DNA of 63,734 nt, the filler included, from Kipferlia bialata (lineage: Eukaryota), in the NCBI GenBank assembly GCA_003568945.1. It is 5 parts of 5 records of this genome, joined end to end, with 100 filler letters (N's around TTAATTAATTAA, not from the genome) between each part and the next. Parts side by side here need not be neighbours in the genome. Positions count along the whole stretch, not along the records: positions 1 to 14,391 come from BDIP01000823.1; positions 14,492 to 28,880 come from BDIP01000824.1; positions 28,981 to 43,362 come from BDIP01000825.1; positions 43,463 to 57,831 come from BDIP01000826.1; positions 57,932 to 63,734 come from BDIP01000846.1. One strand, 5' to 3'. The notes under the pieces were generated by a model that searched no databases, was not told the DNA's origin, and saw nothing but the letters and a program-made list of their open reading frames with translations. The number at the start of each line of letters is the position of its first letter. The stretch's first letter is position 1. Of the stretch, positions 1 through 63,734 are shown piece after piece. The translations under genes were made by a program, and so were the position numbers.

Positions 1-55
<55 letters not shown>

Positions 56-295
56 TACCGTGAGCACACTCCTCTGGTATCTGGCAATGTCCTCTGACCA
101 TATACTACACATGGAATTGCATATACACACTATGATATATATGTATGCATATATACATATACATATGTACGTACCGTCAGCACACTCCTCTGGTATCTGG
201 TAATGTAGATAAAAAATGTGTAAAATACACTCACATTTACTATATATAGCATATGCGAAATGTCACTAGAGAGAGAGTGAGAGAAGATTACGTAC

Positions 296-1761
296 CGTGA
301 GCACACTCCTCTGGTATCTGGCAATGTCATCCACAGTGTCCTTCCACCTAGGGTGAGACATTATCCATGCGTATATGAGTGGAAATGTACATGAAATATT
401 ACCTTTTGCCACTGATTTGAAGAGAAGATACAGATGTTGCATCAATTGCATATACATATGAGTAGTAGAGCTATTATCAGTATCCAATAAATGTATACAT
501 ACAATATTGATAACGTATTTTCTAATATAACATAGGTGAATGTATGCATTACCTTGGTAGCAGAGAGGGTGTCTCTGCATCTCCGTCGGCACCGGTGTAG
601 CGACGCACAACGTGGCCTGACGTTAGACCATCAATAGTAACACATGTGTACTAAAGAGTGGTTGCACTATGTACAAGGTACATATGTGTGTATGTGTGTA
701 CTCATACCAGTAAGTGGCAGCTCTGGTATCTCCCCCTCCACGGGCTGTACGGTGGCCAGCTCAATATAGGCACCCAGACAGCTACCCTGGAGACTAGGTG
801 TGAAGACTGGGTCGACGGGCACGTCAGACTCGACGAGAACGTCGTGCACAGCCGGCTCGACGGCCAGGGGCTCTGTGTGGGAGACGTCAGTCTCGACGTC
901 GACAGTTGTCGCGGTGTGGCTACCCTCCTCCTCCTCCTCCTCTCTCTCTCCCTCTCTCTCTCCCTCTATGGTGGATGTGGGTGCGTGGGATAGGAGAGAG
1001 GGGAGGACGGGCAGGAGGACCTTGCGAGCGTCGCCATACCTAGAGTTAAGGGTGTAGTAGAGAATGAGGGAGAGAGCTATAGTATACATTTAGTATGCTA
1101 CATATACACAAACACATACCTCTCCATCAGGAGTAGCAGATATGCCAGCCACAGACTGACAACGGGGGACAGGGTGTTGGGGGGGGCACAGGCCATGACA
1201 CGTAGGAGGGAACTAGAGTGAGTATATATATATCATAAATACATATACTAAGAGAGAGAGAGAGAGAGGGTGTTGGGGGGGGCACAGGCCATGACCCTTA
1301 AGAGAGCGCTAGAGTTAGACGTATGTATACATGTGTATATATATATGTGTATATATATATAGAGAGAGAGAGAGAGCGAGAGAGAGAGAAGGTGTTAGGA
1401 GGGGCACAGGCCATGACACGGAGGAGAGCGCTTAGAGTAAGAAGAGAGAGAGAGAGAGAGAGAGAGAGGGTGTGCGGAAAATGGCAAGGTGAGAAGAATT
1501 GAAATCTTTCCACATACCGGTAGTGACTGTCGAGCCTCTCATTGGGGATGCTCCTCTTGTTGCCCAGCTGGTACACCCTGGGTATTAGGATTCATATTCA
1601 TATTATATATATACATTCCATTGAATGAAGCTATAAACATACATGTAATGGTTACCCCCTTGTTACCGAGCGGGTACACCCGGAGGTTGGGGCCCGACAT
1701 GTGTATACATTTACTGTATAATACAATGAAACACACACTCTCTGTCAGCTGAAGACCAGCT

Positions 1762-1796
<35 letters not shown>

Positions 1797-3040
1797 CCCA
1801 TTTACAAGAGTATATACTTAATATATAATGTATATAATGTATGTACCTCTCTGTCAGCAGTGGTCTGAAGTCCAGGCTGAAGAGGCCCAATCTGTAGACT
1901 ACTCTCTCCCTCTATCTTCACTCTCTTGTTATAGTATTCATCCGTGCATTCATCATATATACAAATGGCCTATATAGGGCATACCTCTCTGTGAGGAGTG
2001 GCCTGAAGTCCAGGCTGAAGAGGCCCTTCTGCTCAGGGCCCTGGGGGGTTAGAGGTGTATATATATATAGAGAGAGAGAGAGAGAGACAGTAATTATACA
2101 TATATATGAGATACTATGGAAACTGAATGAGTAATGAAGAATGAAGAGACCCTTCTGCTCAGGGCCCTGGGGGGTCAGCAGGGGACAGATTCACCATTGA
2201 AATACCTATTATTCTCTAAATATAACATATATATTCTATATAGTATATTAATGTCTGGGGTCAGCACGGGACAGATACACTATATAATATAGACATTTAA
2301 TAGTAATTAATATGACTATTATATATAGTAATTACAATAGTATATTATTATGTTACATACTGACAGTCATCAGACAGCAGACGAATTGTATTATTCTAGT
2401 ACACACCTGCAGTGGTTACAGACAAGCAAGGTATACATGCTGTTACACTGACTGGGAATAATTATGAATCCATATTATTATTTATCCAAACTGTATATAT
2501 ACATAGAGACTGTATACCTGCAGGGGGTTACATAGCACTGGTCCCTTGTAGCTGGACAGACCTCCCAGGAGTCTGGTGCTGCCATACATCCTGAGGAATT
2601 AGGACAAATGAATATTATATATATATAGACATACACCCACACACACATATATTCATATGCTTATATATATAGACGGCTGGACAGACCACCCAGGAGTCTG
2701 GTGCTGCCATACATTCTGGTATTAGTATATATATACATATTATACACACATATATATATATATAATATACTACTTGGAGCTTGGTGCTGCCATACATCCT
2801 GAGGAATTAGGACACACTCACATATACACACTTGGTGAGGATAGATATGTAAGTACATTGGCAAAATTCACAATTGTCTGTATACTATATACTACTTGGA
2901 GCCTGGTGCTGCCATACATCCTGGGGGGTGAGTATAGTGTGCTGTATATATACACACTATATATGTGTATAACAGGTGATCATGAATATGAGTACGTACT
3001 TCTGCTTGGCCGACTCCTGTTGTCTGACGTGTGTCCTTAT

Positions 3041-3081
<41 letters not shown>

Positions 3082-4625
3082 CATATTATGTATTATACTC
3101 ACTTCTGCTTCTGTGACTCCTGTCTCACGTGTGTCCATATCAGTGGCCACACTATACATATATACAATGTATACTATACATATATATATACCACTATATA
3201 CTACTATACATACCTCTGCTTGGCCGACTCCTGTCTTACGTGTGTCCATATCAGTGGCCACACCCTGTGGTGGTAGGACACAGTGAGAAGACGGGTCTAT
3301 GGGTTAGTATATGTATATATACATATATACGAATATATATATGTATACATGTGTATCAGTGGCCACACCCTGTGGTGGTAGGACACCTTAAGGAGGGACG
3401 TCTGAGAGTAAGATAAAGAGTATTATATATATGTGTGTGTATATATGTATACAGATGTATGAGTGGCCACATCCTGTGGTGGAAGGCAACGGTCAGGAAG
3501 GTTAGGAATACGTGTATATGTATACATATAGCATACCTCTGTTGGCATCAGACCCCTCCTCTGCAGTCCATCCACCACGGCTAGGTACAGGTCCTTCTCG
3601 TGGTACAGCCTGTGGGGTAAGGTACAACATACTATATACACTATGCACACGCATATATACATACACAACTGTATTGATTATATACCCATATGTATATATA
3701 TATACTGGTACATATCCTTCTCGTGGTACAGACTGAGAGTAAGGTCATTTACCTGCCCACCCTATCCATGAACACTGTCCAATCTCTCTCTCCCCTTCCC
3801 CTCTCTCCCCCTCTCTCTCTATATATATATACACACTATATTACCTATCAGCCACCCTGTCCATGAACACTGTCCTCTGGCCTGTGATGCTAGGGGGGGA
3901 GGAATAGTCATCCTGAATGTAAGAAATCTATGTGTATAGCTGACAGTCTCTACATTTGAGAGACAAGAGGTAAATAACAATATCAGAGATAGTGAGTGCT
4001 AGGGGGAGTGGGGTAGTCATCCTGGGGGGTGAGAGGTGAAGAAAGTTACAATGAATATAACTATACAACAGTCCATGATTGCTGCGTATCAATACACATA
4101 CACTATACCTTCTTATGTATGCCGTCAACCAATTGATGCAGTGCTACATACTCTATGAACATAGACATCTATCTACATATATATATATATGTATGTCTAC
4201 TATAATATATACACATGTAATGTATGTATATAGGTACCTTCTTGTGAATCCCATCGAACAGCTGGTGCAGTGCTGCTCTATGAACACAATATACATACAC
4301 ACATATATATAGCTATATAGATATATATCCATATATGTATATATAAATATATATAGTAATACACACCTTCTTGTGGATGCCATCGAACAGTTGGTGCAGG
4401 GCCGCATACACACATGCATAAACATAAATACCAATATATATTAGTATCTATATACATATATATACATATGGTATTAATACAAATATACACTATACCTTCT
4501 TGTGGATGCCATCAAACAGCTGGTGCAGTGCGGCATGCTCTATGAACATGGATATCTCAGCCACACTGCCGTATCTGACTAGACCTAGGACATCACTACG
4601 GCTCATGTTTCTAGAGTAAGGGTCT

Positions 4626-4657
<32 letters not shown>

Positions 4658-6882
4658 CTCACAAGGCCAAGTACATCACTCCTGGACATGTTTCTGGGTA
4701 TGAGGGGGCAGAGAGAGAGAGAGAGAGACAGTAACTGGAATGCCTGACAATGGGTTGTAGTGAGTGCTTTATAAATTGACAAGTTATGTTGTACCTGACC
4801 CACTCTCCGATGTCAATCTCTGGTGTCTCTTCCTCCTCCTCCTCTTCCTGTACAGTCTCATCCACAGTGACCTGAGGTGTTAGAATATCTAAAATATACA
4901 TACATATATACGTTGTAGGCGCTCTCTTCATGGACAGTGACGTCCGCAGTCACCTGGCGTTATATACATACAAATATGTTCGACACAAATATGGTATATT
5001 TATATATATACTATACATATGTACATACCACTGTGTGTCTGACCAGTGGTCTTGATGTCACATATATAGAATATAGTATGTATACCCACAGTATCTCTCT
5101 ATATATATATCTCTCTCTCCATATACTAACACAGTATGCTCTCACCACGGTGTGTCTGACCAGGGGCCTTGATGTGACACGCATGGTCTGGAGGGGGGCA
5201 TCCATGCCTGATATATTAGTATGGTATAATATATATATACTTCTATATATATAGTGCAGATACAATGATTGTCTCCAGGTATATTTGGATATATATATAT
5301 ATATATATACACGCATGGTCTGGAGGGGGGGGTCCATGCCTAAGGGTCAGGGTATGTATAGAGTATGGACTAGACTAGCACATCAATATATACCAACCCT
5401 ATATGTATTATACTACTCTACACATATACCGTAGTATTTATACCTGGTAGGATAAACCCTCCTGCCAGTATGCATGTCTGGCCAAATATAAAACTACTCT
5501 ATACCAATATATATACTAATATATACAAATATATATATATACTATATACTATTGTTATGTTACCTGGCAGTATGAACCCTCCTGCCAGTATGCACGTCTG
5601 GCCATCTATACCACAACTCCATATCAATATATATACTAATATATACAAATCAATATATATATTATATATACTATTGTAATTATACCTGGTAAGATAAACC
5701 CCCCTGCCAGTATGCATGTCTGGCCATCGGTGGCAAGACTCTACTATAATATAGATACTTACAAACACATACACATACATATATATACATATATACAGAC
5801 TAACCGGGTAGGATGAACCCCCCTGCCAGTATGCATGTCTGGCCATCGGTGGCAAGGGCAGGGGGGATGCGGAACCTGAGGGTTACATAAGACATTGTAT
5901 AGTATATATATAAATATAACAAGGTATACATGTATATACACAAACATATATCCATATATGTATTGGTGACAAGGGCAGGGGGGATGCGGAACCTGGGGGA
6001 TATATGTATCATAACATCTATGTAGATATATACAATATACAGTTACACACATATGTGCATGTTACGTATATGCACTATACCTTCCCGTTTGTGGCCAGTA
6101 GAATGGGTAGCTGTACTCCACACTGCCACTGAAGGAGAGGGTCTCGGCAGCTGAGGCCGACCCTGCTCCTAGATATTAATATAGTTTGATTATACTATAT
6201 ACATATATATATATATACACTGCCAGAGAAGGAGAGGGTCTCGGCAGCTGATGCTGATCCGGCGCCTAGTAATTAGTATACTTTGATTATGCTATACATG
6301 TACATACATATACATATATATATATGTATATATACACTGCCAGAGAAGGAGAGGGTCTCGGCAGCTGAGGCAGAGCCAGCACCATATTGTGAGTTACATA
6401 TATACAGATAAGAAGAGAGAGGGATAAAGTCTCTCCCTACCGCAAAACCATATTGTGAGTTATGAGTATACTCATGGAGAGGAGAGAGTAGGATAGAGTC
6501 TCAGCAAACGCACATCCTCAAGATCCTACATATACACATAAGCATCCTCACAATGTGTACCTAGTGGCACCGAGCCAGCTGCTATCGTATCGTATCGTAT
6601 CGTATCGCATACCACATACATATATATACGATACTATAGGACAATATTCTACACATACCTAGTGGCACCGACCCAGCTGGCAGCTGCACCAGCATACCAT
6701 AGAAACGTGTTATATACTATGCACTACCTGTAGAATTACTATATATATATAACTGTATAGTACATATAGTACTACACCCATATCATACCTAGTGGCACTG
6801 ACCCCGCTGGCAGCTGCACCAGCAATCTCCAACCACTTCTGACAGGGGTGGCAGACAGGGACGTGACTGTGGGTTAGAGAGA

Positions 6883-6923
<41 letters not shown>

Positions 6924-8012
6924 GTAGTCTCCAGCCACTTCGGACAGGGGTGGCAGGATCATATATATATATATATATATGAGTACTCACCGTTGACATG
7001 TAGCTCGTACAGCTGCCCCGCCAGTGCACTCTGCACTGTGCCTGTCCGGCCCCTGTCCTTCTCCCTGACCTCCTGGGTGATGTACATCAGCTGCACAGGG
7101 GCACTTGATGCCTTATATCAGTAAATAGGTCTGGTTACAGTACATATACACTATTGGGTGATGTACATCAGTTGGACAGGAGCAGTGGAGGCCTAACGTG
7201 AGGTGGGTATATGGTAGATTAGTATATAAAGTATATAAAGATATGCTCATCATGGGTGATGTACATCAACTGCACAGGGGCTGAGGCAGGCTAAATGTCA
7301 GTATACATAGGAACAGTTATATATGTATTGTTATACGTATATGTGAGACTGGGTGATGTACATCAGTTGGACGGGGGCGGAGGCAGGCTGAGCAGTTGTA
7401 TCAGAAATAATGGCCTGTTGCCATGGACTAGTACACACTGTACATATGGCGTAAATGATATACACACTTACACCCACCTTAGCCTGCCCTGCATGCACAT
7501 GGATACACATCTCTATACATATACACTAATACCCACATAGGTCATCCAAATATTTGTCAGTATCTATATATATTTACCTTAGCCTGCCCTGCATGCACAT
7601 GGACGTACTTGCCAGACTCAGACCGGTCCTGGACATGAGAAGAGAGAGAATATATGTATCATACATACACACATACATAGCCTCTGTCATACCTCCTCTG
7701 TCTCCACCTCATGGACTGATCTGACCAGCAGCATATACTATAGCTTCTATATCGACTATACATACATATTTATATATACACACACACACACACACACATA
7801 TATATATGCTATATCTATCCACTCCTACCTCCTCTGTCTCCACCTCGTGGACTGATCTGACCAGCAGCATGGCAGAGCAGGAGGGGCTAGGAGTAAGGGG
7901 ATGAGTGTACATGTATATATGCATGGATAGAGAGAGAGAGAGAGGACTCATCTGACCAGCAGCATGGCAGAGCAGGAGGGGCTGATGGTAAGGGAGATAT
8001 CTATATACATAA

Positions 8013-8054
<42 letters not shown>

Positions 8055-8055
8055 C

Positions 8056-8091
<36 letters not shown>

Positions 8092-11000
8092 CATCTGACC
8101 AGAATCATAGCTAAGCAGGAGGGGCTGGGGGTAAGGTATATACATAATAGATAGAGACAGAAAGAGAGAGTAGAGATATAATGAGTGAGACAGATGTACA
8201 CACCTGCCAGCCTCGACCGAGAGGCATGGCACCCCTGCCTCCAGGTACCATACATACATATGATATACATATATTGATATGATTTACATATATAGATATG
8301 ATATATATACATATTGATGCCACTCTCTCACGTAGTATACATTAACGTACCTCCTAGACTCAATGCCTCCAGGTACCATACATAGATATGATATATATAT
8401 ATATATATATATTGATGCCATTCTCTCTTCTAGTATGCATTAAGGTACCTCCTAGACTCCACCGATAGGCATGGTACCCCTGCCTCCAGGTAGCGACGCA
8501 CAGAGACAGAGGTCTCGGGGGTCTAAGGGGTAAGAGAACGATAATTGTATTCAGATATTTCTGACCATTCACAATACACTACTATCCATACCTCTGGTAG
8601 TGCCGTGAGTGCCACTGCTGCCAGCAGAGATGTGCAGGAGTTCTTGGACCGGATGGCTGGGTGGTTAGAGACATAACAGAGTGGCAACTAGGACATCACA
8701 CAAAGGAACAAATTGACAGACGTATCCGTTCCTGACATAATCATAACTCTATCTCTAAATGTATAATCTATACATATATCTACATCACTGTATACTCACC
8801 CAGGTCCAAGAAGTGGGGTGTCACAAACACATTGTCCCTGCTTAAGGGTCCAGTGGCCATGTGCACAAGGGCATCCAGCCAGAAGGGGCACCAGGATGTA
8901 CTGTCAGAGTGGGTGCCTAGATATTAGTGGGTATGTACGTACGGACTTATATACATATATACACTATGGGTATATAACACAGGTATGTAGCCAGAAGGGG
9001 GACCAGGATGTACTGTCAGAGTGGGTGCCTAGTATAAGTATGTATATATACGTGGATAGATTATACATATACATATATATATACATATATATATACTATG
9101 TGTATATATATAGTATATGTATCCAGCCAGAAGGGGGACCAGGAGGTGGAGTCGGAGTGGGTGCCTGGTGTTAGTACTTTAGACTAAGACTATTTATCAG
9201 TACCCAAAAACACCCTACTGGACTAATACACGCCATCCTCACCTGTGACCCCGTACCATGTTGTCTCGGCATAGGTGCGTGTGGTGTCAAGGCCCTAGGG
9301 GGTTAGCGTTAGAACGAAGTGGTTCATACCCATACATGAATGTTACCCATTTGTTATGTCACTTATATATTTGATATAATATAAGTGTATGTGGCCCTGG
9401 GATGTCAGAAAGGAACCCTAAGTCTTATAGAAAGCATAGACATTTGGTGTGTTTGTTGCACATAGATGTATTGTATTGTCAAGGCCCTAGAGAGTTAGTG
9501 TTAGAGTTGATTCACACACCAATATACAATGTCACATGTATCATGGCATTGAGAAACTTCAATAACTATCTCAAGAAGTCTTTCTTAATGTACCTGGTAT
9601 CATACTGCCATTGCACTCTCCAGCCTAGACTCCTTGCCACACTCATTGATATATACATATATATGTATATTAACACATCCTAAGAGCCTTCTCTGAGTAT
9701 ACTATACCCACCTGGTATCTTACTGCCTGTGGCTTCTCAGCCATTGCACTCTCTCTCCTAGACTCCTTGGCCAGGGCACCCCCAAAGCCAAAGGACTGAG
9801 GGCCTGACCCTCCGTGCATGCGCCTACTATGAGGAAGAGTATACCATTATATACAGAGTTTAACCAGAGCCATGTACACACCTGGCATAAGAGGCAATAC
9901 TATGTACATACACAATGTATCTACCTGCTCTTCTTGGGCATGGCCAAGCCCACTCTCTCTCCATCAATAGATAAATACACTATCAGAGTATAATGAAATA
10001 TACTTTGGGAATACACATATTAATCTATACCTGCCCTTCTTTGCCTTGGGCATAGCCCCTCTCTCTCTCTCCATCCTTCTAGATCTAGGTGGAGCCATGG
10101 AGACCTCGTCCATAATGGGGGCTGGGGGTTAAATACAACAGAAAGGTCTAAATATGGTTACATTAGTATTTGAATATATGTGTTGTAGGGCATCCATACC
10201 TGCATTTCCAAGTGCCATGGCCATCATTGGTGGAGGGGGACCGCCTGACAGTTAGTATAGTATGAATACATAGATGTGAAAGTTAGTATAGTAAACATAT
10301 ATATACAAAAATATATGTGCATATACATATGTATATATACCTATCGGTACCAGTCAGAGAATGCAGTGGTAGCAATACACATACAGAAGTCAAAGAAAAT
10401 TGTGGGGAGCAAAGAATACTCAGAATTCAGGATTGGTAGGAGGACTTGAGGCAAATACAACACACTCCCTAGAATATGTATCACAATCATTAACATGCAC
10501 CACTAGCTATACAAATATATACATATATATACATATTATACATATACATATAATAGTATAACACCACTTAGTACATATAATACATACCCGCACCTGGTGG
10601 GGGACACTCACACATGCATATATAGGTATATACATATATATAATATATATACATATTATACATATACATATAATAGTACAACACCACTTAGTACATATAA
10701 TACATACCCGCACCTGGTGGGGGAGGGGGAGCCATGGACATACTGCTGCTGGGGGTGAGTCATGGAACAACCAGGAATAGAGTCTATAACAAAGGTAATA
10801 GATACATACCACAGCTACCTAGGTCATGGGACCACCAGGAATAGGGTATCTAACAGAATACAGGGAGAATTATGGGATCGGAACACCAGGAATAGAGTCT
10901 ATAACAATGGTAATAGAGTAAACATTGGGAACTAGTCAATATGCAACTGATACAGACCACAGATACCTAGGTGGGAGTGGGGGTGATGTCATTCCTGGCG

Positions 11001-14000: not shown

Positions 14001-14251
14001 AGTAAACATCCATATTCTTTTCATATCGATATGTTATATATATATGTTATATATAGCAGTACCTGTTGGCACCACATAGTCCCTGAAGAAGTCTCTGTCG
14101 AGACAGTACTAATGAATATACTAATACACATATACTAATATATACAACACATTATACCTGTAGGCACCACATATCCTGTGAAGAACTGTCTGTCCAGACA
14201 GTACATGGCAAAAGTGAACTCGTGAGAGACAAGGCGGGCATAGTGAGTGAT
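296..14251 (-). CDS. Partial multi-exon gene (both ends off-scaffold) for a very large conserved uncharacterised protein
   Basis: Manually spliced GT-AG exons read in frame: ITHYARLVSHEFTFAMYCLDRQFFTGYVVPT-VLSKMQLDIVDHW (14251-13697), RYQ-GLDTTRTYAETTWYG (9712-9244), PFWLDALVH..FVTPHFLDL-AIRSKNSCTSLLAAVALTALPE (8916-8592), LLVQLPAGSVPLG, YPFYWPQTG-RFRIPPA, LDFRPLL, LGNKRSIPNERLDSHY, LQGSCLGAYIEL, WKDTVDDIARY. From memory, the motif order matches a ~2000-aa hypothetical family seen in Planctomycetes and protists; unverified without a search. Confidence 0.8.
11851..11926. other. Intra-scaffold N gap
   Basis: Run of N without the linker motif, inside an array of exon-end copies. Similar gaps at 18655-18699, 38505-38542 and 48825-48866. 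Confidence 0.95.
12669..13336 (-). repeat. Six-unit tandem array (period about 125 bp) of an exon 3' end, most units with a GT donor
   Basis: CTGGGCTCTTCATCTGCTCCACTAT(C/T)AC(A/T)GTGATGTCT recurs near 12669, 12797, 12921, 13044, 13169 and 13296. It encodes DITVIVEQMKSP. Only the 13292-13381 unit is a complete exon. Confidence 0.95.
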
Positions 14252-39981: not shown

Positions 39982-40304
39982 TCCATGTCCCCCAGACCAA
40001 TGTCACTGGCACAGCAGTTCAGAGATAGTAGGTATATACACACTTTATGTATAGTATATTTGTATAGAGAGAGAGAGAGAGAAAGAGAAAGAGCTAATGT
40101 CCCCCCTGGCACAGCAGTTCAGAGATAGTAGGTTTGTAGAGATAGCGTAGTTCATATAGTGTATTATCTGCATATCTCACGACAGGTTCTCTCTCTCCCC
40201 CTCTCTCTACAACGTAGTATCTCTCTCTCTCTCTATACATCTCTGTCTCTTACTCCAGGTTCTCCCCCTCCATGCTGCAGACAGGCCCTGCCTACATAGT
40301 CAGG

Positions 40305-40347
<43 letters not shown>

Positions 40348-42338: not shown

Positions 42339-42424
<86 letters not shown>

Positions 42425-43237
42425 CTGAGGCAGACGCTGAGGTACGAGGATATGGATCCATGGCAGTATTATGTATCTCCCTTCTTCTGCCCCCCCCCCC
42501 TTCCTCTTAAGTAATATAGTAAACTAGGATGAGAAGAACTCGGACTTATATACTGTCCAACCCCCAGTACCCAGATGAGGACGAGAGAGATAGAGAGAGG
42601 GATGCTGTGGATGATGCCTATGCAGGTGCCCAGGCCGTGGCTGGGTTCTTTGGGGAACCATCAGATAGAGTACGATATTATTGTATCTAAATTGCTCTCT
42701 CTATATGTATATCTCACAGCCGTGGCTGGGTTCTTTGGGGAGCCAAGTGATAAGGTATGGATAGTATAGTATATGAATCACCCCCCTCTATCTCTCTCTC
42801 TCTCTCTCTCCCACTCAGACTAAGCTGATGCCAAAGTCCTTACACTCAACTCGCTCTCTCGCTCTCCCCCCTCTATATAGATATATGTATATATAGCTTG
42901 TCCTATAGGCCGACGCCGAAGAGTTATCGGCCCCTTGCCACTGTGTATGAGACTCTCTCTCTCTCTCTCTCTCTCTCCCCCCCCCCCTCTCTGTATAGAT
43001 ATACGTATACACATCTTACCCCAGGCCGATGCAGAGGTGCTGCGTTCCCTAGCCACTGTGTATGAGGATCTCTCTCTCTATCTCTCTCCCCCTCTCTAAT
43101 ACTAGGCTGATGCTGAGGTCCTTAGGTCCCTGGCCACTGTGTATGAGGGCATAGTCAGCACAGTCACAGAGGGCGGGGAGGGGGAGGGGGAGAGAGAGAG
43201 AGACGTGCTGGACAGGGTGGACCAGCTCTGTGTGCAG
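41982..43237 (+). CDS. Unknown acidic protein, 3'-truncated
   Basis: ATG at 41982. Exon 41982-42320, then DEDERDRERDAVDDAYAG..GFFGEPSD and ADAEVLRSLATVYEG...DRVDQLCVQ (43106-43237). Confidence 0.65.
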
Positions 43238-52165: not shown

Positions 52166-55100
52166 ATGCCCCCCAGCAGCGTGCACCGTGTGCTACTGCG
52201 GGAGGAGGATGGGTTGGAGGTGCGAGAGTATATTCACCGTTTCAATATCTTGCACTGATGGTGACCTGCTCGAGATTGGGTATCCTCATGTGTTTCTCTC
52301 TCACCCCCCCCCCCTTACTCCTATCATACTCCACTACCCCTCACCCCCAGGTGGACTGTGACACTGTGCAGTCCCTGACCCAGACAGAGGACCCAAGGTG
52401 AGTGGTGCATAGGATCTCACTGACTATCGTCTTTGTCACATTTCATAGTATTCTCCCGAATACGTTCTCTTTATCAGTTAGTAAGGGGATTGATCATATA
52501 TTCGGGTGTTAGCTGCTGCGCCATATACCATCACATATTGATAACTCTTCTGCCTTCTATGACCCGCTCCTCCCATCTCTATCCTCACCTCTAGGACAAG
52601 TCGCCTGATTGTAACCTGTGTGGCCACCCCTGATGCCCCAGCCGCATTTGAGGGTACGATTCTAATATATCCGTATATATGTATATACTCTCCCCCTCCT
52701 GATGCATATCCCCAGCATGCCCCTCCCATTTCATATATTATATCTATACTCCTCCGTGCATAACCCCAGGCATGCCCCTCCCCTTCCCCCTGGCCCTGCC
52801 TGAGACTGGTCCTGTGCCCACACTGTCGGTGGGGGTGTCGAAGGTATGTATGTATGTACACAATATATATATATATATATTTATGCGTGTGTGCGTGTGT
52901 GTGTTGGATGTCAAAGGTATGTATACTCTCCTGACATAAGGAGGGCTGTCTGATAGTCTGGTGTCCTCTTTACTCACCCCCAGACCCACCCCGCCCTCCT
53001 TAGCCTTGCTGCCAGCCCCCGCTTCTACCATTCTGCCCTGGTGCGGTGTGGGTGTGTAGTCATCATGGCAGGTGGGGATCGATGTATGCATGTATATATG
53101 TATATATATATTTATATATACACTGAGTGTGTAGTCATCATGGCAGGTGGGGATGTTTATATATCTGTGGTTGATTCTCTAGACTCCATTTATTCTCATG
53201 CACACCTTATTCCCCTACCACTCCCCCTCACCCCAGGCTGCAAGGAGAGTGCCGTCCTTACTCTGATGGACATAGCAGACAGACTGGCAGAGCTGGTGGA
53301 CCCGGCATACCCAGTCGTAAACAGGTGGGGACTCTCCCTCTCTCTCTCTCTCTCCATATATATATATACCACACACACTCAAATAATTGTTCAGTTTAGT
53401 ATACACCCTTACCCCCAGGCCGTGTGCCCTTGTTGTGCTACCCATATATATACATATATATATATATATACATAATAATAATACACATACATATAGTGTA
53501 GTAGACATCCCTCACTCCCAGGCCGTGTGCCCTTGTTGTGCTGCCCCACCCCAGACTGAGGAGTGGGGACACACCCTCCCTGGTCACAGTCAGCCCAGAG
53601 GTCGGGAGGGCGTTCAGGTAGGCGTTAGTAGTGTATGAGTGTTAGTATTTTGTACCCCCCCCCCCCTCACCCCCCAGCTCCATCTTCACCGAGTACCCCA
53701 CCCCCTCTGCCATCCAGGGAGTGCTGAGGGGGGTGCCAGCTGATGCAGTTGATGCATCAGGTCTCACCCCCTCTAACGATGATGGTTCTACCCCCTCCAG
53801 TCCCTCTAGACCCTGGCCCACTTCTCTCTCTGCCTGTCTGCAGGGCATGGAGGTGGTCCTGGCTACACCCCTATTCAGTCCAGCGGTGGAGGGGGCAGAC
53901 GCATACAGCGTGTTCCTGCCGCCCCATGCCATCTCAGACCTGCCACCCACCCTGCCCCCTGCACTGGCACTCAGTGTGCTGTCACCAGCTGCAGACAAGG
54001 TATGATTAGTGATCTATATCAGGTGCCGATATATGTACATTATAAATACTAACACCTAGGCCATGCTGGCAAGGTTAAGTGGTATATACAATGAACTCTC
54101 CATTTACTCTGTATATACCCCCCCTGACTCCAGGCCATTACCGACTACAAGGAGGCCCTTCTCTCCATCCCTCTACCAACTGGGGTGGCCAGTCTCATGG
54201 CCATACACCAGGTACAGTACTCCATATTCTATATGCAATGTGTATTTACATTCCATATTAGTGTATATATATATTCTATACCTTTGTGATGGGGTGGCCA
54301 GTCTCATGGCAAGACACCAGGTATAGGATATGGCACAATCACTAATTGCAATGCTTGCGATTATCTAGATACATGTGTTTTCGAAACTATTATCCCTCAC
54401 CCCAGGAGGCCCTGCACTCCATGCTGGACGGTCTCCCCTTCTCTGAGTGTGCCGAGTGCATGCCCTACGAGGAGGGGGGGGAGGGGTCAGAGTATGTGCT
54501 GTTCCACATCAGGTATGAATATATATATATATATAGTAATATATATGTATGTGTGTGTGTGTGTATGAATGCATTTGTACTACTGTGTATCTTGTATATA
54601 TACACCCTCTCACCTCTCAGGGGCATCGTAGAGCGTGCCCTGCGTGAGGTTGCCTGTGCGGACTCCCCCATCACTGCACCCTTCTGGTGTGCCAGGGAGG
54701 GGGACATGAGTGGGAGGCCACAGGTATGGTATAGTGTATATATATACATTGTGTATATTTATATATACAATGTAACATATATACGTTTGTATATATATAT
54801 GTGTCACTGCACCCTTCTGGTGTGCCAGGGAGGGGGACATGAGTGGCAGGCCACAGGTGTGTATATGTGTGAAAGCTTCATAGTAGTAGGTGTAGAATAT
54901 AGTAGTGCAGCAGTTGTATATCGTAGTGTGTATGTCTCTAGTTATAGCTTCTACACATTGAATTACCCGAGCCATTACCCCCTTCCCAACCATCACCACT
55001 TGATAGATATATATCTCATACATATACTTGTTTGTATTTCTTTGCACGTCTTATACCCCAGACCCCCTTCCTGGCCATCACCGCTGGTATATTGTACATT

Positions 55101-57476
55101 ATATTGTAAATACGTTTATGTATACGTATATGTATACCTATGTATGCTAACCCCAGACCCCCTTCCTGGCCATCACCACTGGCCGCCGGTCCATCCTGCA
55201 CCAGACCGTCAAGCCAAGTAGGGGAGGGGGGGCGGCATCCCTGTCCAGCCTGGTGCACATAGCAGCCAGTGTGCCTGCACCCAACACCTTATTGGGACAG
55301 TGCCTGGAGGCCAACCTCCAGAAGAGCAAGGAGGTGGGTAACATGTGTATGTGATTATTTCCTGTATTCATTGATAAACATGTACGCACTCTCCCCCCAG
55401 GTGTGTGAGAGTGCGTACAAGGACGGTGCCGAGGTTCTGGTCTCCACCAGTCAGAGTGCAGCCAGCCTAGATGACCTGTATGCAGTGGGGAACAGGTACA
55501 GTCACATCGTTAACATATTATTAACTTTATTATTAACATATATGTGTGTGTCCGTCTTCCCCTCCTCACCACAGGGTCACGAGTAGGTTCAGTGCCCGTG
55601 CCTCGGGTCCAGCCTGTGGCACATACGAGACTAGGCTGAAGCAGGTGGGTGACAGTTAAATATACTAAGCCTAGTGGTTACTTGCCACACATAGGGTTCC
55701 TATTGAGGCTTCCACTGACCCAGGCCTACCTCCGTGCCGAGAGGGACGTCATGGCCAGACTGCTGCAACAGGCACAGGAGGACAGGTATATAGTATATAT
55801 CTATATACGTATGTGTGTGTGTATATTACTCTATACCCCACTGACCCCCAGGGAGGGCCTGTCCTCCCTTGTGCAGCGTCTATATACAATCATATGAATT
55901 CACACATATATATATGTATCACTGTCCACTCCTCTTACTCCAGGGAGGGTCTGTCCTCCCTTGTGCAGCGTGTGGCAGCTGAGGTTGCCACCCTGAGGGC
56001 CAGGGAGGAGGAGAGAGAGGAGGAGCAGGTCAAGCTGCGGCGGAGACTGTCCGAGGTGGAGGGCACACTGTCTGTGGCAGGGGGTGGGGGAGGGGGAGGG
56101 GGTGGGGGGGATGAGTCCTTCGAACCATACGTCAATGGGTACGTATTATATTCTATATATATTTAACATACATAGGTATATATTATGTATCCCACTTTCT
56201 TCCTCACCCCCCAGTGCCCTGGCTGAGTTGAGGCAGTGTGTGCTGGAGCTGGCCAGGACAGTCCAGGACCAGGGGCAGGTATGGGATACACACACAATGA
56301 TACATTAGCATACATACTCCAATACCCCCCCTCACCCTCCAGCGCAGTGCCACCGATGCCCAGACCATATCGTCCCAATTCGACTCAATCAGGTGTGGTA
56401 TCATTATTACTGTGTACCTATATTACAAAGGTGTGAGTTTGAATACTACATTTCGTTCTCACTGTCAGGACCGCCCTGTCCTCCCTGGACAACACCGTGC
56501 ATGACCCCGTTGAGATGCAGATGCTGGCGTCACCCACACTCACACAGACCGTGGAGGAGGACCCGGTGCTGAGGTAGGGGTTATGTATACACAGACGGTC
56601 GAGGAGGACCCAGTGCTGAGGTATACTTCTTAATATGTATAGGGTATATATATACATATGTATAGGGGGATGTATATATGAATATGATATGTGTTCATTG
56701 AAGTGTTTCGCCCCCCTACCCCTCAGGTCTGAGATGAGTGCCGTGGTGCATGACCTCAGAGACATGGCAGAGAGGCAGACACAGGTACATGGATATATAT
56801 AGATGTATATATATAGGTGTATAAGTATGTGGGTCTATATACCTAGGGAATATGCATGCTTCAGAGACATGGCAGAGAGGCAGACACAGGTACTAGTAGT
56901 GCATTGTGCACACACGCATTTAGATTTGTATGTCATACACTTTGGCTATGGCCACTCTCTCACCCCCAGAGTGAGGCCAGTGCCCGTGAGAGGCGTGACA
57001 AGATAGAGTCACTGAGGGCACATGTGCTGAGGGTGGCCGGGATGCTGAGCAGGTGGGTACTTATTCTGCCTGTGATAGACTGTATCTACTCAGGATATGT
57101 CTCTCTCCCTCACCCCCAGGATGACCAAACAGACTGGTCCTAATATATCTATACTTATTTACAATTACAATTAACTACATGTATCCATTCCTCTTACCCC
57201 AGGATGACCAAGCAGACTGTGTTGATACCCGAGGAGAGGCGGCACCAGGGTGGTGTAGTTGTGTGGGATGGGCACAACTGGACCATGCACAGCCCAGAGA
57301 TGGTGGAGAGGGAGAGAGAGAGGGTGCGGCGTGAGCAGAGAGAGAGACGGAACAGCACCGGCAGAAGGCACCCCGAGGACATATCCAGGACCCAGTCCAG
57401 CATGGGTATAGAGAGTGTGCCAGTGTGTGTGGTGTCCACGCCCAGGACAGCACCCAAGCACAGGGCAAAGCACTGA
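52166..57476 (+). CDS. Unknown protein with globular N-terminal half and coiled-coil C-terminal half (possibly a degenerate kinesin-like protein)
   Basis: In-frame spliced exons from MPPSSVHRVLLREEDGLE-VDCDTVQ through VACADSPITAPFW..TPFLAITT to coiled coil LVQRVAAEVATLRAREEEREEEQVKLRRRLSEVE; ends KHRAKH* at 57476. Confidence 0.65.
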
Positions 57477-58158: not shown

Positions 58159-59139
58159 GCTGCGAAGTGCAGCACATGTGGTACCAGTGGCACTGAGTGT
58201 GACCTGTATGTGTGTCTCAACTGTGGCACCATGCTGTGTCAGGTACATAATATAGTGTATATACTAGTATATAGTATGTATGCATATAAACTATATGTAT
58301 GTGATCTGTATGTGTGTCTCAACTGTGGCCCTCTGCTGTGTCAGGTATGTGTATGCCATATATTTATACATATGAAGTGCTTAGTATGTACTCACATCCA
58401 GGGTGACTTCAGCAGAGGCAAGATGGGGGAGGGGCATGCAGCCATGCACGCCAGGTATGGGGCACACTTAGGCACTGATATATATACTCCCTATACTCTC
58501 ACTAGCTCACCCTCTCTCTCTCTCTCCCTGCACATCCCTCACCCCCAGAGCCAAGCACCACCCAGTGCACATGAGCATGGCAACAGGTATGAGTAGATTA
58601 GTATATAGTATATGTAGATTATGTAGTATAGTATATAATTATTGCCCAGTGCACATGAGCATGGCCACAGGTATGGATAGTATGTATATGTATATATAGT
58701 GATACGGGTAAACATAATACATTACTATTAGAGAGTAACAGGTATGTGTTTGTTGATAACATGATAATAGCTCACAAATTGTGGACTCTGCTCTCATCTA
58801 TATGAACCATGTAACACCAGGTGACCTGTTCTGCTATGAGTGCAAGGGAGTGGTGGACTCTGAGGAACTCAAGATGTGCATATCAGAGGACATGACGCCA
58901 CAGCTCACAGAACTCAGGTATATAGATAGACAGCTTGTATGTTGAACAATACAACCTTCATTTCTCTCTCTCCCCTCCCTAACCATCTCATCCCTTGGAG
59001 TAACTCAATTTCTCTCTCTGTCTCTCACTTATCCCTAGGAGTAAGGCCATGGGTCTGCTCTATACTCTCTCGTTCTCTCTCTCTCTGTCTCTCTCACTTA
59101 TTCCTAGGAGTAAGGCCATGGGACTGCTCTTTGGCTCTG

Positions 59140-59173
<34 letters not shown>

Positions 59174-60373
59174 CCTAGGAGTAAGGCCATGGGTCTCCTC
59201 TATGGCGCTGGCTCCACCACGGCACAGGCAGAGGAGGAGAGAGAGAGAGAAGATGAGGAGAGCAGCGAGGACTGGGAGAGAGAGAGAGACAGGGGCAAGA
59301 GGGGAGCCATATATGGTCAGAGCTACAACATTGGTATGTACTACATAATGTGTAGGGGTAATTGTCTCTGTAAAGAGGCCCTGTCTCTATCCGTGTGCAA
59401 ATCTTCTTTCCTTGCCACCACTGCGTCTGCCAAGATGCAGAGTGAGAACTCTCTGTCCCTCTCAGTATATATTATATAATATAATATATATATATAATAT
59501 ATATAATATATATATTAGTGGCAAAATTCCTCCTCACCCCCCTGCGTCTGTTAAGATGCTCTCTCTCTCTCTCTATCTTATATCTCCTTACATCTAGGCA
59601 CCACTGCCTCTGTCAAGATGCCGTCCACCAACAGTGGCAGGGCAAGGCCCAGTGCCAAGGGGGAAGGTGTGTTTGTATATAGAATTCATTTTAAGTCCTA
59701 CAGAGGACATGATTATCCCATTAGGGTCCAGTGGACGATACTATGATGCATATTGTGCCCCTTGCTTCACCTAGTATCGACACCCTGACCCCAGACTCCT
59801 CCCTCTACCCCTCCATCCCCAGGGCAAGGGCAGGTCATATATATATATATGTCTCTCTCTCTGTATATATATATATATATGTATGTATGTATATGTATGC
59901 TAACCCTCAGACTCCCCCCTCTACCCCTCCATCCCCAGGGCAAGGGCAGGGTCATATATATATGCCTCTCTGTAGATATATATATATATATATATAAGTA
60001 TATATATGCTAACATCAGACTCCTCTCTCTACCCCTCCATCCCCAGGGCCAGGGCAGGGTCCTTCTCATCACCCGATGCCATGGGACTGCCAGAGACCTC
60101 GGGGATCAAGGCTACAAGGTACATATATAATGTATACTATATAGTATATAACAGGTATATGTGCGTGTATATATGTCACCTGATGCCATGGGACTGCCAG
60201 AGACATCGGGGATCAAGGCAACTAGGTACAAGTATTCTATATATTATATGGTATGTGAATTATTTTATACTATGTATTATATATATAATAGGCATATGTG
60301 TATATGTCACCTGACGCCATGGGACTGCCAGAGGCAAGTGGTATCAAGGCTACTAGGTATGCTTGTGAGTATA

Positions 60374-60414
<41 letters not shown>

Positions 60415-62410
60415 CTCTCTCCCTCTCACACCCCAGCTCTGAGAAGAGGCGCACCCGTGTGTCGAGACCACACACCAAGAATGCCAGTCCTGTCACAAGC
60501 ACCACTACTACCACTACCACCTCCCGTCACACCCTGTCTGTCGTGTCCCCTATAGACCTAGAGGCTGAGCTAGCCTGTGCATCCCTAGATGGGGGTAGCA
60601 CTGCAGTGGAGACAGTTGTGGTAGCCCCAGTGTCTCCACAGACAGTGGCTAATGGCGGTGTAGAGGAGGAGAGAGAGGACGAGGAGAGCAGCGAGGACTG
60701 GGAGAGAGAGAGAGACAGGGGCAAGAGGGGACCTGCTCTGTATGGACAGATGTACAACATAGGTGAGTCTCTCTCTCTATATATATCCGTACATATATAT
60801 AGGTATGTTTGTTCATATCTCACCCCCAGGCTCCACTGTCAATGCCAAGGTCCCATCCAGGGAGACATCAGTCACAGGTGGATACAAATCAATATGTGTA
60901 CTCACCTGTCTTTCTCTCTCTATACGTATACATGTCTAACCCCAGGCCAGACCTACCGTGCCATCAGTCTCTCTCTATCTCCCTCTCTCTCCCTCTCTCT
61001 GTCTATGTATATTTAGGTGTGTGTGTGTCTAACCCCCAGGCCAGACCTACCGTGACATCGGCCTACCCGAGACATCGGCCATATCGGCAAAGCCAAGGTA
61101 TATATTTCATGTATGTTTATGTATAACTATATAGTGTATGTGTATATATACATTAATGTGTGTGGGTGTAGTTACCCATATCTGACCCCAGTGAGGCCGA
61201 GAGAGAGACCGACACCAGGGACATGGTGCCTGTCCTGAGGGCATCACCTGCATCGGCATCGGTCTACACAACACCCCCAGGTACATAGATACCATACTGG
61301 TTGTATGCGCAAATATATGTATACATATCAAACAATTTTCTCTCTCCTTATCTCTCTCTCTGTATATCTATATTCCTCACCCCCAGGTGGAGACAAGCTG
61401 ACCCTCACCCCCTCCCCTGAGAGCCCCTCGGCCACCCTACACTCTGAGGGCAAGGACAGCAGGTATGAGTAATATACATTTGTATGCACACATATATGTA
61501 TAGAGAGAGAGAGAGGTTACTCGGCCTCGGCCACTCTGCACTCTGAGGGCAAGGACAGCAGGTACAGGGCTCTATATATATACTAGAGATATATACGTGC
61601 TATATACATATCTTATATAGTAGTAACTCTCTCTCTGCCACCCTTCACTCTGAGGACAAGGACAGCAGGTATAGGGTTACAGATATAGATTTATGCATGT
61701 CATATATAGTTGCAATAATCCTATATACAGCCCCAATACATGTATATCTATGTATGCATATATACACGCATGTCTAGCCCTCTTACTCCCAGGTTCTCCC
61801 TCTCCCACTCCCTCAAGGGGAGTATATCCAAATATACATATATATACTTATAGTGTATCTACCCCCCTCCCCCCAGGTTCTCTCTGACCCACTCCCCCAG
61901 GGTACAGGAGAAGAAGAGGAGGAACAGCATCCTGGACATGTTCACAGGTGAGGGGCATCTCTCTCTGTCTGTGTGTGTCCCCCTATATATATATATATTT
62001 GTGGATGCGTACAGCAACAACTGGATCCATCTCTCTCTGTCTCTCTTCCTATATACATCTAATTCAGGCAAGTCCCCCTCTGGCCCTGTCCTGGGTACCA
62101 TGAGTGCACAGGAGCCAAGGCCCATACCCAAGGAGTGTACGTGTGCACATGTTCACTCATACGACTGTATACCGATATATTATAAATCTATATATGAATA
62201 TATAGAGATGTGTGTGTGTGTCTAACCCCTAGCGCTGCATACTACCACCTTGTCATCCCGACTAGGGCTGAGACAGCATCCTTCTCTCCCTCTCTCCCCT
62301 CTATGTATATCTACCATACTCACCCTAGCCTATGGATACATAAATCTATATGTCTCACCCTAGCCCTGTACATCTCCCACCCTGTCATCCCGACCAGGGC
62401 AGAGGCAGCA

Positions 62411-62444
<34 letters not shown>

Positions 62445-62845
62445 TACTCACTCTAGCACTGTACATCTCCCACCCTGTCATCCCGACTAGGGCAGAGGCA
62501 GCAGCTGGGACAGCATTCTGTCTGCCAGACAAGACAGGCATATCGATCAGGGACTTGAGGTATGGGTGGTGTATATGTGTTATAAATGAATATTTGTATA
62601 TGTATATATAGTATATATAATTGTTTTGATAGATAGATATAGATACTATTAGGTACTGTATGACTGGCATATCAATGAGGGGCCTAGAATTTGCTACCTA
62701 TTTTGCATATATATATATATATACTATACATATTCACTGTGTACAGTTTATGTGTAGAATACTCACCCCCAGGGATAGTGACTCCCGGAAGGCTAAGCCA
62801 AAGGCCAAGGCAGGGTGTGCAGTGATCAGACCGAAGCCTAAGGTA

Positions 62846-62882
<37 letters not shown>

Positions 62883-63526
62883 CCGAAGCCTGAGGTACAG
62901 TTTATATAGGCACTATACGTACACTGTATTACTACTAATGCTATTTGTGAGTAAATATCGTAAAGACACAAAGTACATCACTATCCTTGCTCTGTCTCTC
63001 TCTCTCTCTCTCTCTCCCCTTCCCTCTCTTACCCCCTAGGCCACCTCTGAGGACTTTGGCCTTCCCGAGACAACCGGAATATCAGTGGCAGACCTCAGGT
63101 ATGGTATTCCATGTTTATATATATATATGTGTGTGTGTACCCTCGTCTCTCTATATATATATCTATCTATCCATCTATCTCACCCTAGGGATGAGTGTGA
63201 CTCCCCCTCCTCTGTCAGATCAAGGGCATCATCGGTGTCAGGCACAGGGTGTGCAGTGAAGAAGATATCCAAGGTATATACAGTACACCGTATATGTATA
63301 GAGAGAGAGAGAGATATAGGGCATCGTCTGTCTCTGGCACTGGGTGTGCTGTGAAGAGGGTCAATAGGGTATGTGGAGTGCATAGTATATGTGTTCAGAT
63401 ATGTATTGGTCAATAAGGTTGTCGCCATGTATTTGTATATATATGTCTATTCATTCATACTCTCCCACCCCAGCCCACCGAGGACATTGGTCTGCCTGAG
63501 AGCACAGCCATAGCGGCAAAGCCTAG
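58159..63526 (+). CDS. Partial gene with N-terminal zf-UBP (ubiquitin-binding zinc finger) followed by a repetitive low-complexity region
   Basis: Exons give KCSTCG...LYVCLNCGTMLCQ-GDFSRGKMGEGHAAMHAR-AKHHPVHMSMAT-GDLFCYECK, the zf-UBP Cys/His pattern. No USP Cys-box seen in the window. Confidence 0.85.
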
Positions 63527-63695
63527 GTATTGTATATCAAAAAATATATATATAGATGTAGCAGTCCTGCTATTGTGTATACTTCATATAGCAGCAAAGC
63601 CCGTCTCTGCGTGTGGTTCTACTAAATAGATTCTCCCACAAAAGCGTGCTACTTCATTACACTTACCCCAGCCCCTGAGCCGGAAGAGTACTCTC

Positions 63696-63734
<39 letters not shown>

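Follow-up and report, generated by a model that had tools for sequence, protein, structure and literature searches.

Internal gene duplication and intron gain by tandem duplication are known to produce short tandem duplicates within a gene, with a splice site inside them, and copies of this origin are expected to decay neutrally. Introns of the free-living protist Kipferlia bialata hold copies of the ends of their flanking exons that do not show this pattern. How did these copies arise, and from which sequences were they taken? An earlier note on this DNA had proposed (a) that they were captured from diverged alleles by illegitimate crossover, (b) that they are translated, or (c) that selection drives the real exons away from them. 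We know of no sexual cycle described in the lineage of K. bialata. Here we argue, with a probability that we put at about 0.6, that the copies derive from further functional alleles of the gene in which they lie, out-of-register recombination between homologues having placed them in tandem.

Window, gene models and screen

All counts refer to the window, that is, the whole stretch of 63,734 nt on five scaffolds. Gene models were curated by hand and replaced those of an automatic gene finder, which took copies for exons in copy-rich regions; two exons at 27974-28214 were left out because they broke the phase, as were a few fragments of genes at the ends of scaffolds. The 184 modelled introns were screened for matches to the ends of their own flanking exons, with 1,840 trials against foreign introns as a control. 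Comparison with DNA contigs (run X1) and RNA contigs (run X2) covers positions 60-3295, over which runs X3 and X4 gave no cover; this is not read as absence. X2 was taken as RNA on the ground that GT-AG introns are spliced out of its contigs.

Exon-end copies are frequent and anchored at splice sites

The screen gave 138 exon-end copies (72 acceptor-type, 66 donor-type) in 68 of the 184 introns (37%), against 2 matches in the control; wrong-side matches amounted to 1 in 203. Median copy length is 35 nt (5-95% range 20-50), and the maximum of 66 nt holds even beside exons of at least 100 nt. Each copy has one anchored splice site: raw alignments start within 1 nt of the exon border in 104 of the 138 copies and within 3 nt in 119, and AG or GT is retained at the correct offset in 118. 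Donor-type copies always precede acceptor-type ones (23/23 introns, 62/62 pairs), so that no AG-to-GT unit arises between them. Single copies make up 58 of the 91 families, arrays have 1-6 copies, and TRF finds arrays of 60-130 nt with 2-5 units (76-95% match) in some introns. Likeness between the intron flank of a copy and the flank of the exon itself exceeds the 95th percentile of foreign comparisons in only 22 of 118 cases. Copy-bearing introns have a median of 62% A+T, and GC3 does not separate copy-bearing from copy-free genes among the modelled genes of the window. The main genes and groups of copies found by the screen are:

296..14251, minus strand: gene S1m, 34 modelled exons with 959 codons open and RNA joints; 61 copies in 26 of 33 introns
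22512..22764, minus strand: four copies in one intron, the only ones found on scaffold 2
29153..31116, minus strand: gene S3m, 5 exons; 3 copies in 2 of 4 introns
31357..41426, plus strand: gene S3p1, 26 exons, 877 codons; 36 copies in 17 of 25 introns
38108..38989, plus strand: exon 38635-38705, surrounded by six copies of acceptor type and three of donor type
42416..43067, plus strand: gene S3p2; four copies, among them 43025-43067 with its 7 silent nt differences
48777..48964, minus strand: two donor-type copies of exon 49122-49020
52351..57476, plus strand: gene S4p, 21 exons; 10 copies in 8 of 20 introns
58159..63526, plus strand: gene S5p (KIPB_004100, Pfam PF02148); 18 copies in 11 of 18 introns

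The S5p model agrees with protein P0002 at 550 of 567 modelled amino acids. Scaffolds 1, 3 and 5 bear copies in 58 of 82 introns. The earlier note placed copies on all five scaffolds, which is true of each, but nominally so for scaffold 2 (1 of 63 introns) and for the minus-strand genes of scaffold 4 (2 copies in 1 of 19 introns). We count the near absence of copies from scaffold 2 against exchange between alleles.

Differences between copies and exons are mostly silent

Among 483 nucleotide differences between the 138 copies and their exons, 287 are silent and 196 non-synonymous, and an amino acid is altered in 149 of the 400 differing codons. The earlier description of these differences as almost only synonymous was therefore overstated, although the silent bias is strong: pooled pS is 0.256, pN 0.055 and dN/dS 0.18 (family bootstrap 0.14-0.24), and 53 copies lack any non-synonymous change. 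Copies compared with each other (70 pairs, 33 families) give a dN/dS of 0.11 at pS 0.29. Stop codons occur in 4 copies, only one of them away from a break-off edge, and indels in 9. Per-copy pS is barely overdispersed (chi2 167, 137 df, p 0.04); non-synonymous differences are overdispersed among copies. The individual examples put forward earlier all hold:

5029..5062, minus strand: donor-type copy of exon 5207-5146; 4 of 4 differences (5029 vs 5146) silent
6217..6380, minus strand: two acceptor-type copies of exon 6168-6081; in 6217 vs 6122 five whole codons differ silently, and the split first codon is silent by eye
35943..35979, plus strand: acceptor-type copy of exon 36050-36115; two Ser codon-family switches (AGT AGC to TCC TCC), plus TTT to TTC
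43025 vs 43106, in S3p2: six codons, 7 nt differences, all silent

To these can be added three donor-type copies of exon 5875-5805 (5444..5737, minus strand), with 11 differences, all silent, in a four-gamete combination. Exon 6168-6081 and its two copies have three synonymous states at three consecutive codons.

Simulated dead duplicates passed through the same detector gave a dN/dS of 0.55 and a pN of 0.14, and a simulated allele model gave pS 0.26 and pN 0.05. These simulations reject detection bias as the source of the silent excess. In 400 runs of a dead-duplicate simulation, dN/dS never fell below 0.35. The pooled ratio, which the earlier note had proposed to set against neutral decay, lies below these simulated values. 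Mutation bias was rejected as well: a kappa of up to 4 gives 0.28, and fourfold sites show no transition bias (57 transitions vs 98 transversions); they show no AT drift either (54 GC>AT vs 47 AT>GC).

Ser TCN/AGY switches, at 9 of 86 codons, exceed our expectation at such divergence and count against an origin from other alleles. They also speak for selection pushing real exons away from their copies. We nevertheless regard this, option (c), as very improbable, since the differences among copies, silent ones included, are as large as those between copy and exon, and divergence between alleles is equally high in the long exon 708-1039, which has no copy.

RNA contigs skip copies that carry strong splice signals

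Copy acceptors differ from the real ones at 6.4 of 12 positions, and their score is 14.5, against 13.6 for real and 0.7 for randomly changed sites (59 copies); only 1 of 59 copy acceptors and 8 of 59 copy donors are identical to the real site. The strong signals speak for translation of the copies by unusual or alternative splicing, as in option (b). An opposite dinucleotide lies near the break-off in 42 of 118 copies, a count of bare dinucleotides made with no control, and copy 42719-42754, with an upstream AG, a GT and a compatible frame, could from its sequence be an alternative exon. Within 60-3295, however, RNA contigs, which drop rare splice forms, splice with GT-AG ends over all nine testable copies, and no joint enters a copy:

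1264-1308 and 1386-1430, minus strand: two acceptor-type copies of exon 1212-1120; RNA joint 1212>1518 skips both
1656-1680 and 1847-1888 (within 1656..1888), minus strand: two copies; RNA joint 1576>1984 skips both
2676-2715, 2776-2798, 2898-2920, 3000-3042 and 3103-3152 (2676..3152), minus strand: five copies; RNA joint 2589>3213 skips all

Stops, indels and the lack of an AG-to-GT unit between donor- and acceptor-type copies also count against translation, which we hold to be improbable. We take the copies to be untranslated exon-end pieces, those tested being skipped in mRNA. If this holds genome-wide, the spliceosome must ignore full-strength decoy sites on both sides of an exon, which implies cross-exon or scanning site choice. 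The K. bialata spliceosome is described as reduced, with 87 of 174 proteins found (PMC6679479).

Copies carry the states of two haplotypes

DNA contigs over 60-3295 resolve into exactly two haplotypes, A and B, at 1:1 and about 420x each. They are some 5-8% apart in exons (pieces differ at 8/114, 7/96, 7/85 and 8/81 nt), and 21 of 22 listed SNPs are silent. Introns are haplotype-specific at 85% likeness in this region, and allelic introns mostly do not align. Allele B is known as a partial table over 60-3295 and as one 220-aa protein (P0001), collinear with S1m over its 220 aa.

These contigs bear on the suspicion that the copies are an assembly artefact, or ordinary dead duplicates known from hand-picked examples. 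The assembly is built from short reads of a heterozygous genome, X1 may be its source, and X1 contigs are k-mer paths, not single molecules. Yet contigs without mismatch span copy and exon at single-haplotype depth in four stretches (1804-2032, 3088-3278, 1535-1754, 2099-2603), and copies 1656-1680 and 1847-1888 lie on such contigs at depth 422-437. With the simulated dead duplicates and the fourfold sites also against it, we consider this explanation very improbable.

Copy-exon and copy-copy differences resemble allelic ones in size and silent bias: allele proteins differ at 17 of 220 aa and trimmed copies from their exons at 112 of 1,276 codons, a match that rests on one gene because allele B is known for so little. 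At 17 copy-by-SNP positions the copies have the state of A 11 times, of B 5 times and of neither once; with a 13-nt block added by eye, the counts are 16, 11 and 2 of 29. That copies agree with A somewhat oftener than with B is a point against an allelic source. The two copies at 1264-1308 and 1386-1430 are mosaics of A and B states and form a four-gamete set together with A and B. Three amino acids of allele B are present in S1m copies:

11113..11259, minus strand: acceptor-type copies of exon 11028-10967; copy 11113-11141 has allele B's Pro at its first codon
12456..12503, minus strand: the acceptor-type copy of exon 12415-12253 here encodes Cys, as allele B does
14063..14109, minus strand: the donor-type copy of exon 14251-14158 here encodes Asp, as allele B does

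The heterozygous diploid state, the allele-like divergence and the other allele's states in copies thus support the part of option (a) that concerns capture from diverged alleles. A search for a second allele of S3p1 found none, the long S1 exon, used in a profile search, had a single weak and repeat-like match, and the P0001 and P0002 protein clusters had no further members.

Break-off points are shared and more than two states occur

Sibling copies have a common break-off point in 36 of 70 pairs (14% at random), as in the five donor-type copies of exon 13380-13292 (12664..13210, minus strand; period about 126). This speaks against a fresh illegitimate crossover for each copy, the mechanism proposed in option (a); a single seeding event followed by out-of-register exchange between homologous sequences is therefore the likely source of most copies. 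Near the break-off (within 27 nt) pS is about 0.21, farther out about 0.4, a gradient that the detector does not produce in simulation.

Each copy could instead be the scar of a separate break, in which one-sided invasion of the homologue is finished by polymerase theta at microhomology. Clear microsatellite microhomology is enriched at break-offs (17 of 138, against 2% simulated), and the 66-nt ceiling fits such scars. Gene models of Dmc1, Spo11 and PolQ are listed for K. bialata, and fornicates are given as lacking Ku and Rad51A (PMC8516963). Homologous recombination finished by end joining is described as yielding tandem duplications in worm and plant; these come from repair mutants and have both units from the same homologue, whereas the units of K. 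bialata look heteroallelic (PMC13031629). Moreover, the half of sibling pairs that share the break-off and the sequence beyond it are unexpected from independent events. We judge separate breaks improbable as a general explanation, if slightly less so than translation. Break repair with polymerase theta may account for the seeding step, and the duplications of PMC13031629 are a plausible route to a first microhomology-joined copy.

Four-gamete violations occur in 4 of 9 families. Of 56 variable fourfold codons, 9 show three states, as against 0 of 27 variable second positions. In 40 copy pairs in which both copies differ from the exon, the base is the same in 28 and different in 12. At pS near 0.3, homoplasy can account for part of the four-gamete patterns and third states. 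A hybrid or long-asexual diploid might have undergone the same exchange by mitotic recombination, with its two haplotypes as the only partners and with no outcrossing. That exactly two haplotypes are found over 60-3295, that copies are A/B mosaics and that 28 of the 40 pairs agree would suit this, but the 12 disagreeing pairs and the third states would not. Captures staggered in time would moreover leave the older copies decayed, yet copy-copy dN/dS is low. We find this limited form of exchange unlikely, though less so than any other rival. The third states suggest more than two alleles.

Proposed origin of the copies

Because copies differ from exons mostly silently, as do the cell's alleles, they are likely to be remnants of other alleles in working use. 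The first copy would be seeded by a rare event in which slippage, or microhomology joining at TA/GA repeats, duplicates a short stretch across a splice site in tandem; it would be tolerated because splicing presumably uses the exon-proximal site only. That clear microsatellite microhomology marks no more than 17 of the 138 break-offs counts against this reading. The working exon end of one allele would then pair with a copy carried by the other allele; allelic introns are so diverged that this end of 20-60 nt is probably the main local homology. Such an exchange would retain the old break-off junction and import splice site and codons from the foreign allele; arrays would grow and shrink. Copy turnover would be fast relative to allelic divergence, and copies would therefore show little neutral decay. 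Third synonymous states would need more than two functional alleles and therefore outcrossing in a very diverse population. We infer hidden outcrossing, or cryptic sex.

Copies might also be spare parts under ongoing purifying selection, restored to the working position by array contraction or conversion while damaged ones are purged. Copy splice signals as strong as real ones and the single stop codon away from a break-off edge favour this, and the very high diversity would imply a large population in which weak selection works. By a rough calculation, however, return rates of a few times the mutation rate are needed while silent divergence stands near 0.3, and overdispersed non-synonymous differences are expected where some copies decay. 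Since it works only with other alleles as donors, it supplements exchange between alleles and does not replace it; as an explanation by itself we rate it unlikely, a little below exchange between two haplotypes. Tentatively, the two can be combined: K. bialata introns might be a genome-wide, self-renewing archive of many working alleles, in which out-of-register exon-end recombination is routine (Dmc1-only, non-alignable introns), copies cycle back and are kept functional by selection, and one diploid genome records an outcrossing, hyperdiverse population.

Relation to known systems

The earlier note knew of no description of such copies. The structure itself is known, from avian exon stuttering and from a human VNTR; the synonymous, allelic signature and an occurrence in protists were not found described in our literature searches. 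Exon stuttering on avian dot chromosomes, reported in 2026 only in birds and gerbils, consists of partial copies of the adjacent exon with a donor or acceptor in the neighbouring intron; its mechanism is given as unknown, with inaccurate meiotic strand invasion offered as speculation (PMC12954441). As in K. bialata, the source lies at the exon border and includes the splice site, and the median length is close (36 bp in birds, 35 nt here). The avian repeats are imperfect local tandems in introns very different between alleles (PMC12954441), which the TRF arrays of some K. bialata introns and the haplotype-specific introns of 60-3295 may match in part. The two differ in setting (GC-rich chromosomes in birds, AT-rich introns in the protist), in density (3.4% of dot-chromosome introns, 37% of modelled introns here) and in array size (avian median 4, up to 44; fewer, 1-6, here) (PMC12954441). 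The words 'synonymous' and 'selection' are absent from the main text of PMC12954441; the allelic signature was therefore not examined there.

In human F7, the first unit of the 37-bp VNTR of intron 7 spans the exon-intron border, and the downstream donors are described as functional but silent, the most upstream one being used (PMC1557585), much as the RNA contigs of K. bialata skip the nine testable copies. That VNTR is one locus, on the donor side, with identical pseudo-sites, unlike the scores of loci on both sides in K. bialata, whose units are about as diverged as alleles (PMC1557585). Tandem duplicated or mutually exclusive exons differ from the copies, which have one anchored site each and, in the nine testable cases, are skipped in RNA contigs.

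Exon stuttering, as a structure, thus extends to a distant eukaryote, where it is about ten times as dense. The copies are traceable because the alleles of K. bialata are so diverged, and the codon pattern points to working alleles as the donors, which favours exchange between homologues over simple slippage. If the pattern is genome-wide, the mechanism of exon stuttering becomes testable, and a single genome offers many alleles at once on which cryptic sex in free-living fornicates can be tested. Both haplotypes may be included in the genome size and gene count published for K. bialata.

Gene models

Curated models across the window, whose five scaffold pieces are separated by N spacers, comprise 12 genes or gene parts with 196 exons and 184 introns, every frame being open. 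A scaffold 1 exon matches Kipferlia bialata KIPB_009163 at 93% and a scaffold 5 exon matches KIPB_004100 at 100%. Outside checks covered the models of scaffolds 1 and 5: six introns in 60-3295 are confirmed by RNA contig joints, the scaffold 1 model is collinear with the allele B protein P0001 along 220 aa, and the scaffold 5 model agrees with P0002, the KIPB_004100 protein, at 550 of 567 aa. A branch point (CTCAC, CTAAC, CTTAC or CTGAC) lies 3-5 nt upstream of the AG at 179 of the 184 acceptors, a distinct pyrimidine tract being absent, and resembles the fused signal of Giardia and Trichomonas. A reduced spliceosome has been described (PMC6679479). The published K. bialata genome is a short-read assembly of extracted DNA with 124,912 introns, for which two k-mer peaks suggested diploidy; the terms 'heterozyg' and 'duplicat' are absent from that paper's main text (PMC5874029).

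Intronic copies of exon ends

Alignment of every exon end to its adjacent intron yielded 138 copies in 68 of the 184 introns. Foreign introns gave 2 matches in 1,840 trials and wrong-side tests 1 in 203, AG or GT is retained at the correct offset in 118 of the 138, and the four examples cited in the earlier note proved accurate. The copies are a real feature, patchily spread: copy-bearing introns number 58 of 82 on scaffolds 1, 3 and 5, 8 of 20 in S4p (plus-strand gene, 52351..57476), 1 of 19 in the minus-strand genes of scaffold 4 and 1 of 63 on scaffold 2. Introns of scaffold 2 (14492-28880) are short (median about 80 nt) and only 8 of 63 contain (TA)4; copies themselves lengthen introns, so that shortness may be either a cause or a consequence of their scarcity, and this scaffold perhaps represents a tract that is homozygous or recombines little.

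The copies are very probably no assembly artefact in 60-3295, where contigs of the DNA run X1, possibly the assembly's own source and not single molecules, span copy and exon with zero mismatches at a depth of 365-437, the single-haplotype level. Translation through unusual splicing, one proposal of the earlier note, was not borne out: joints in X2, a run treated as RNA (1212>1518, 1576>1984 and 2589>3213, all with GT-AG ends), pass over 9 of 9 copies, rare splice forms being invisible in contigs. All 23 introns holding both kinds have donor-type before acceptor-type copies (62 of 62 pairs), which would fit removal of arrangements creating pseudo-exons. The donor-type copy at 42719-42754 also has an upstream AG in compatible frame, and could act as an alternative exon.

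Codon bias of the copies

Over 1,551 codons, copies and exons differ by 287 synonymous and 196 non-synonymous changes (pS 0.256, pN 0.055), with a dN/dS of 0.18 (0.14-0.24 over 91 families), or 0.16-0.17 after trimming of the edges where copies break off. The silent bias is real; the claim that divergence is almost only synonymous was overstated, 149 of 400 differing codons altering the residue. Pooled dN/dS is not near neutral decay, a simulated dead duplicate beside a constrained exon giving 0.44-0.48, never under 0.35, and 0.55 when run through the full detector. A+T drift is absent at fourfold sites. Comparison between copies gave pS 0.29 and dN/dS 0.11 (0.065-0.20), predicted neither by neutral decay nor by selection driving exons away from their copies, an alternative thus left unsupported.

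Copies and alleles

Exons in 60-3295 exist as two alleles, A and B, at about 420x each, both contained in X2. Four exon pieces totalling 376 nt show 30 differences between them, and a tally of known differences gave about 44 over 813 exon nt; this 5-8% would correspond to pS of about 0.2-0.3, with isolated SNPs liable to be merged in contigs. Of the 22 listed SNPs 21 are silent, and 17 of 220 aa separate the two proteins. Copy-exon differences thus resemble those between alleles, the allele B data covering one gene. Introns in 60-3295 mostly fail to align between haplotypes; the second has its own assembly and annotation entry (KIPB_009163), so that both haplotypes may in part be counted in the published genome size of 51 Mb and total of 17,389 genes. 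Within exon 10967-11028, 9 of 14 consecutive residues are not those of its allele, neighbouring exons being almost identical.

Where A and B are known to differ, copies carry the A state 11 times, the B state 5 times and neither once (16, 11 and 2 including a 13-nt block read by eye). In exon 1212-1120, an Arg codon and a Pro-Pro pair occur in each of their four possible combinations across A, B and two copies. Amino-acid differences in the copies at 14063, 12456 and 11113 are residues of the allele B protein, although residues common to copies and B alone could be ancestral. Ungapped comparison, whose figure is inflated by spacing shifts, puts copy and real acceptors 6.4 positions apart out of 12, yet copy acceptors score 14.5 against 13.6 for real sites and 0.7 after random change; donors score 5.7, 6.0 and 3.7, respectively. 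Judged by these scores, copy sites have, like working sites, shifted from one sequence fitting the consensus to another. Of the variable fourfold codons, 9 of 56 show three states, as against 0 of 27 variable second positions, and 4 of 9 families violate the four-gamete rule; both results suggest more than two alleles, although homoplasy may contribute.

The best explanation, to which we assign a probability of about 0.6, is exon stuttering in which the copies are renewed from further functional alleles. Capture from diverged alleles, as first proposed, is supported by the allelic-type divergence and the B residues; outcrossing, or cryptic sex, we can only infer, as homoplasy may account for some of the third states. 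Counting against renewal from alleles are the scarcity of copies on scaffold 2, switching of Ser between TCN and AGY at 9 of 86 codons (scaffolds 1, 3 and 5; mostly AGY in exon, TCN in copy) and multi-base changes in 43 of 112 amino-acid differences, both kinds of change exceeding what we expected at such divergence. Frequent multi-nucleotide mutation, or deep lineages, may lie behind the Ser switches and the two-base Arg switches seen in 4 codons.

Possible mechanism

Break-offs coincide within 2 nt in 36 of 70 sibling pairs, copies of one exon end (14% by chance), and the sequence beyond is related between siblings. pS is about 0.21 close to the break-off and climbs to about 0.4 beyond 27 nt; a uniform simulation was flat save for the first bin. 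Shared break-offs and gradient fit exchange inside exon-end homology: a working exon end would recombine with a copy carried by the other homologue, and the product would keep the old junction but have a foreign splice-site side. The first copy might be seeded by microhomology, with modest support (17 of 138 break-offs, 2% simulated). Dmc1 prefers homologues and tolerates mismatches. Metamonads are described as lacking Ku and fornicates as lacking Rad51A, with two Dmc1 paralogues; K. bialata gene models include Dmc1, Spo11, Msh2 and PolQ (PMC8516963). The nearest repair mechanism reported involves same-homologue units (PMC13031629).

Known systems

The structure, of which the earlier note knew no description, is already known as exon stuttering. 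The avian form shares border anchoring and copy length, but is reported for birds and gerbils only, K. bialata being a protist, and affects 3.4% of dot-chromosome introns against 68 of 184 modelled introns here; its mechanism is presented as speculative and codon analysis does not feature in the account (PMC12954441). Human F7 intron 7 is the classic case, at one locus only (PMC1557585). The open-licence literature searched yielded no account of the allelic signature or of exon-end copies in Kipferlia.

Other features

Two different exons of KIPB_004100 (59179-59333 and 60660-60762) share the coding stretch EEERE.DEESSEDWERERDRGKRG..YGQ.YNIG, and additional internal repeats, with a GLPET motif, lie beyond them; from their sequence, these are probably whole-exon duplications still coding. 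Further features are:

43580-44297, minus strand: presumably an FKBP-type prolyl isomerase-like gene, by motifs; GC3 0.86, zero copies
14553-17104, minus strand: what we take to be a membrane adenylate or guanylate cyclase-like gene, by its YDIFGDTVNTAARL motif
18093: GC-AG intron in S2m2, a scaffold 2 gene
50500-50530: short putative tRNA-like 3' half, intergenic, scaffold 4
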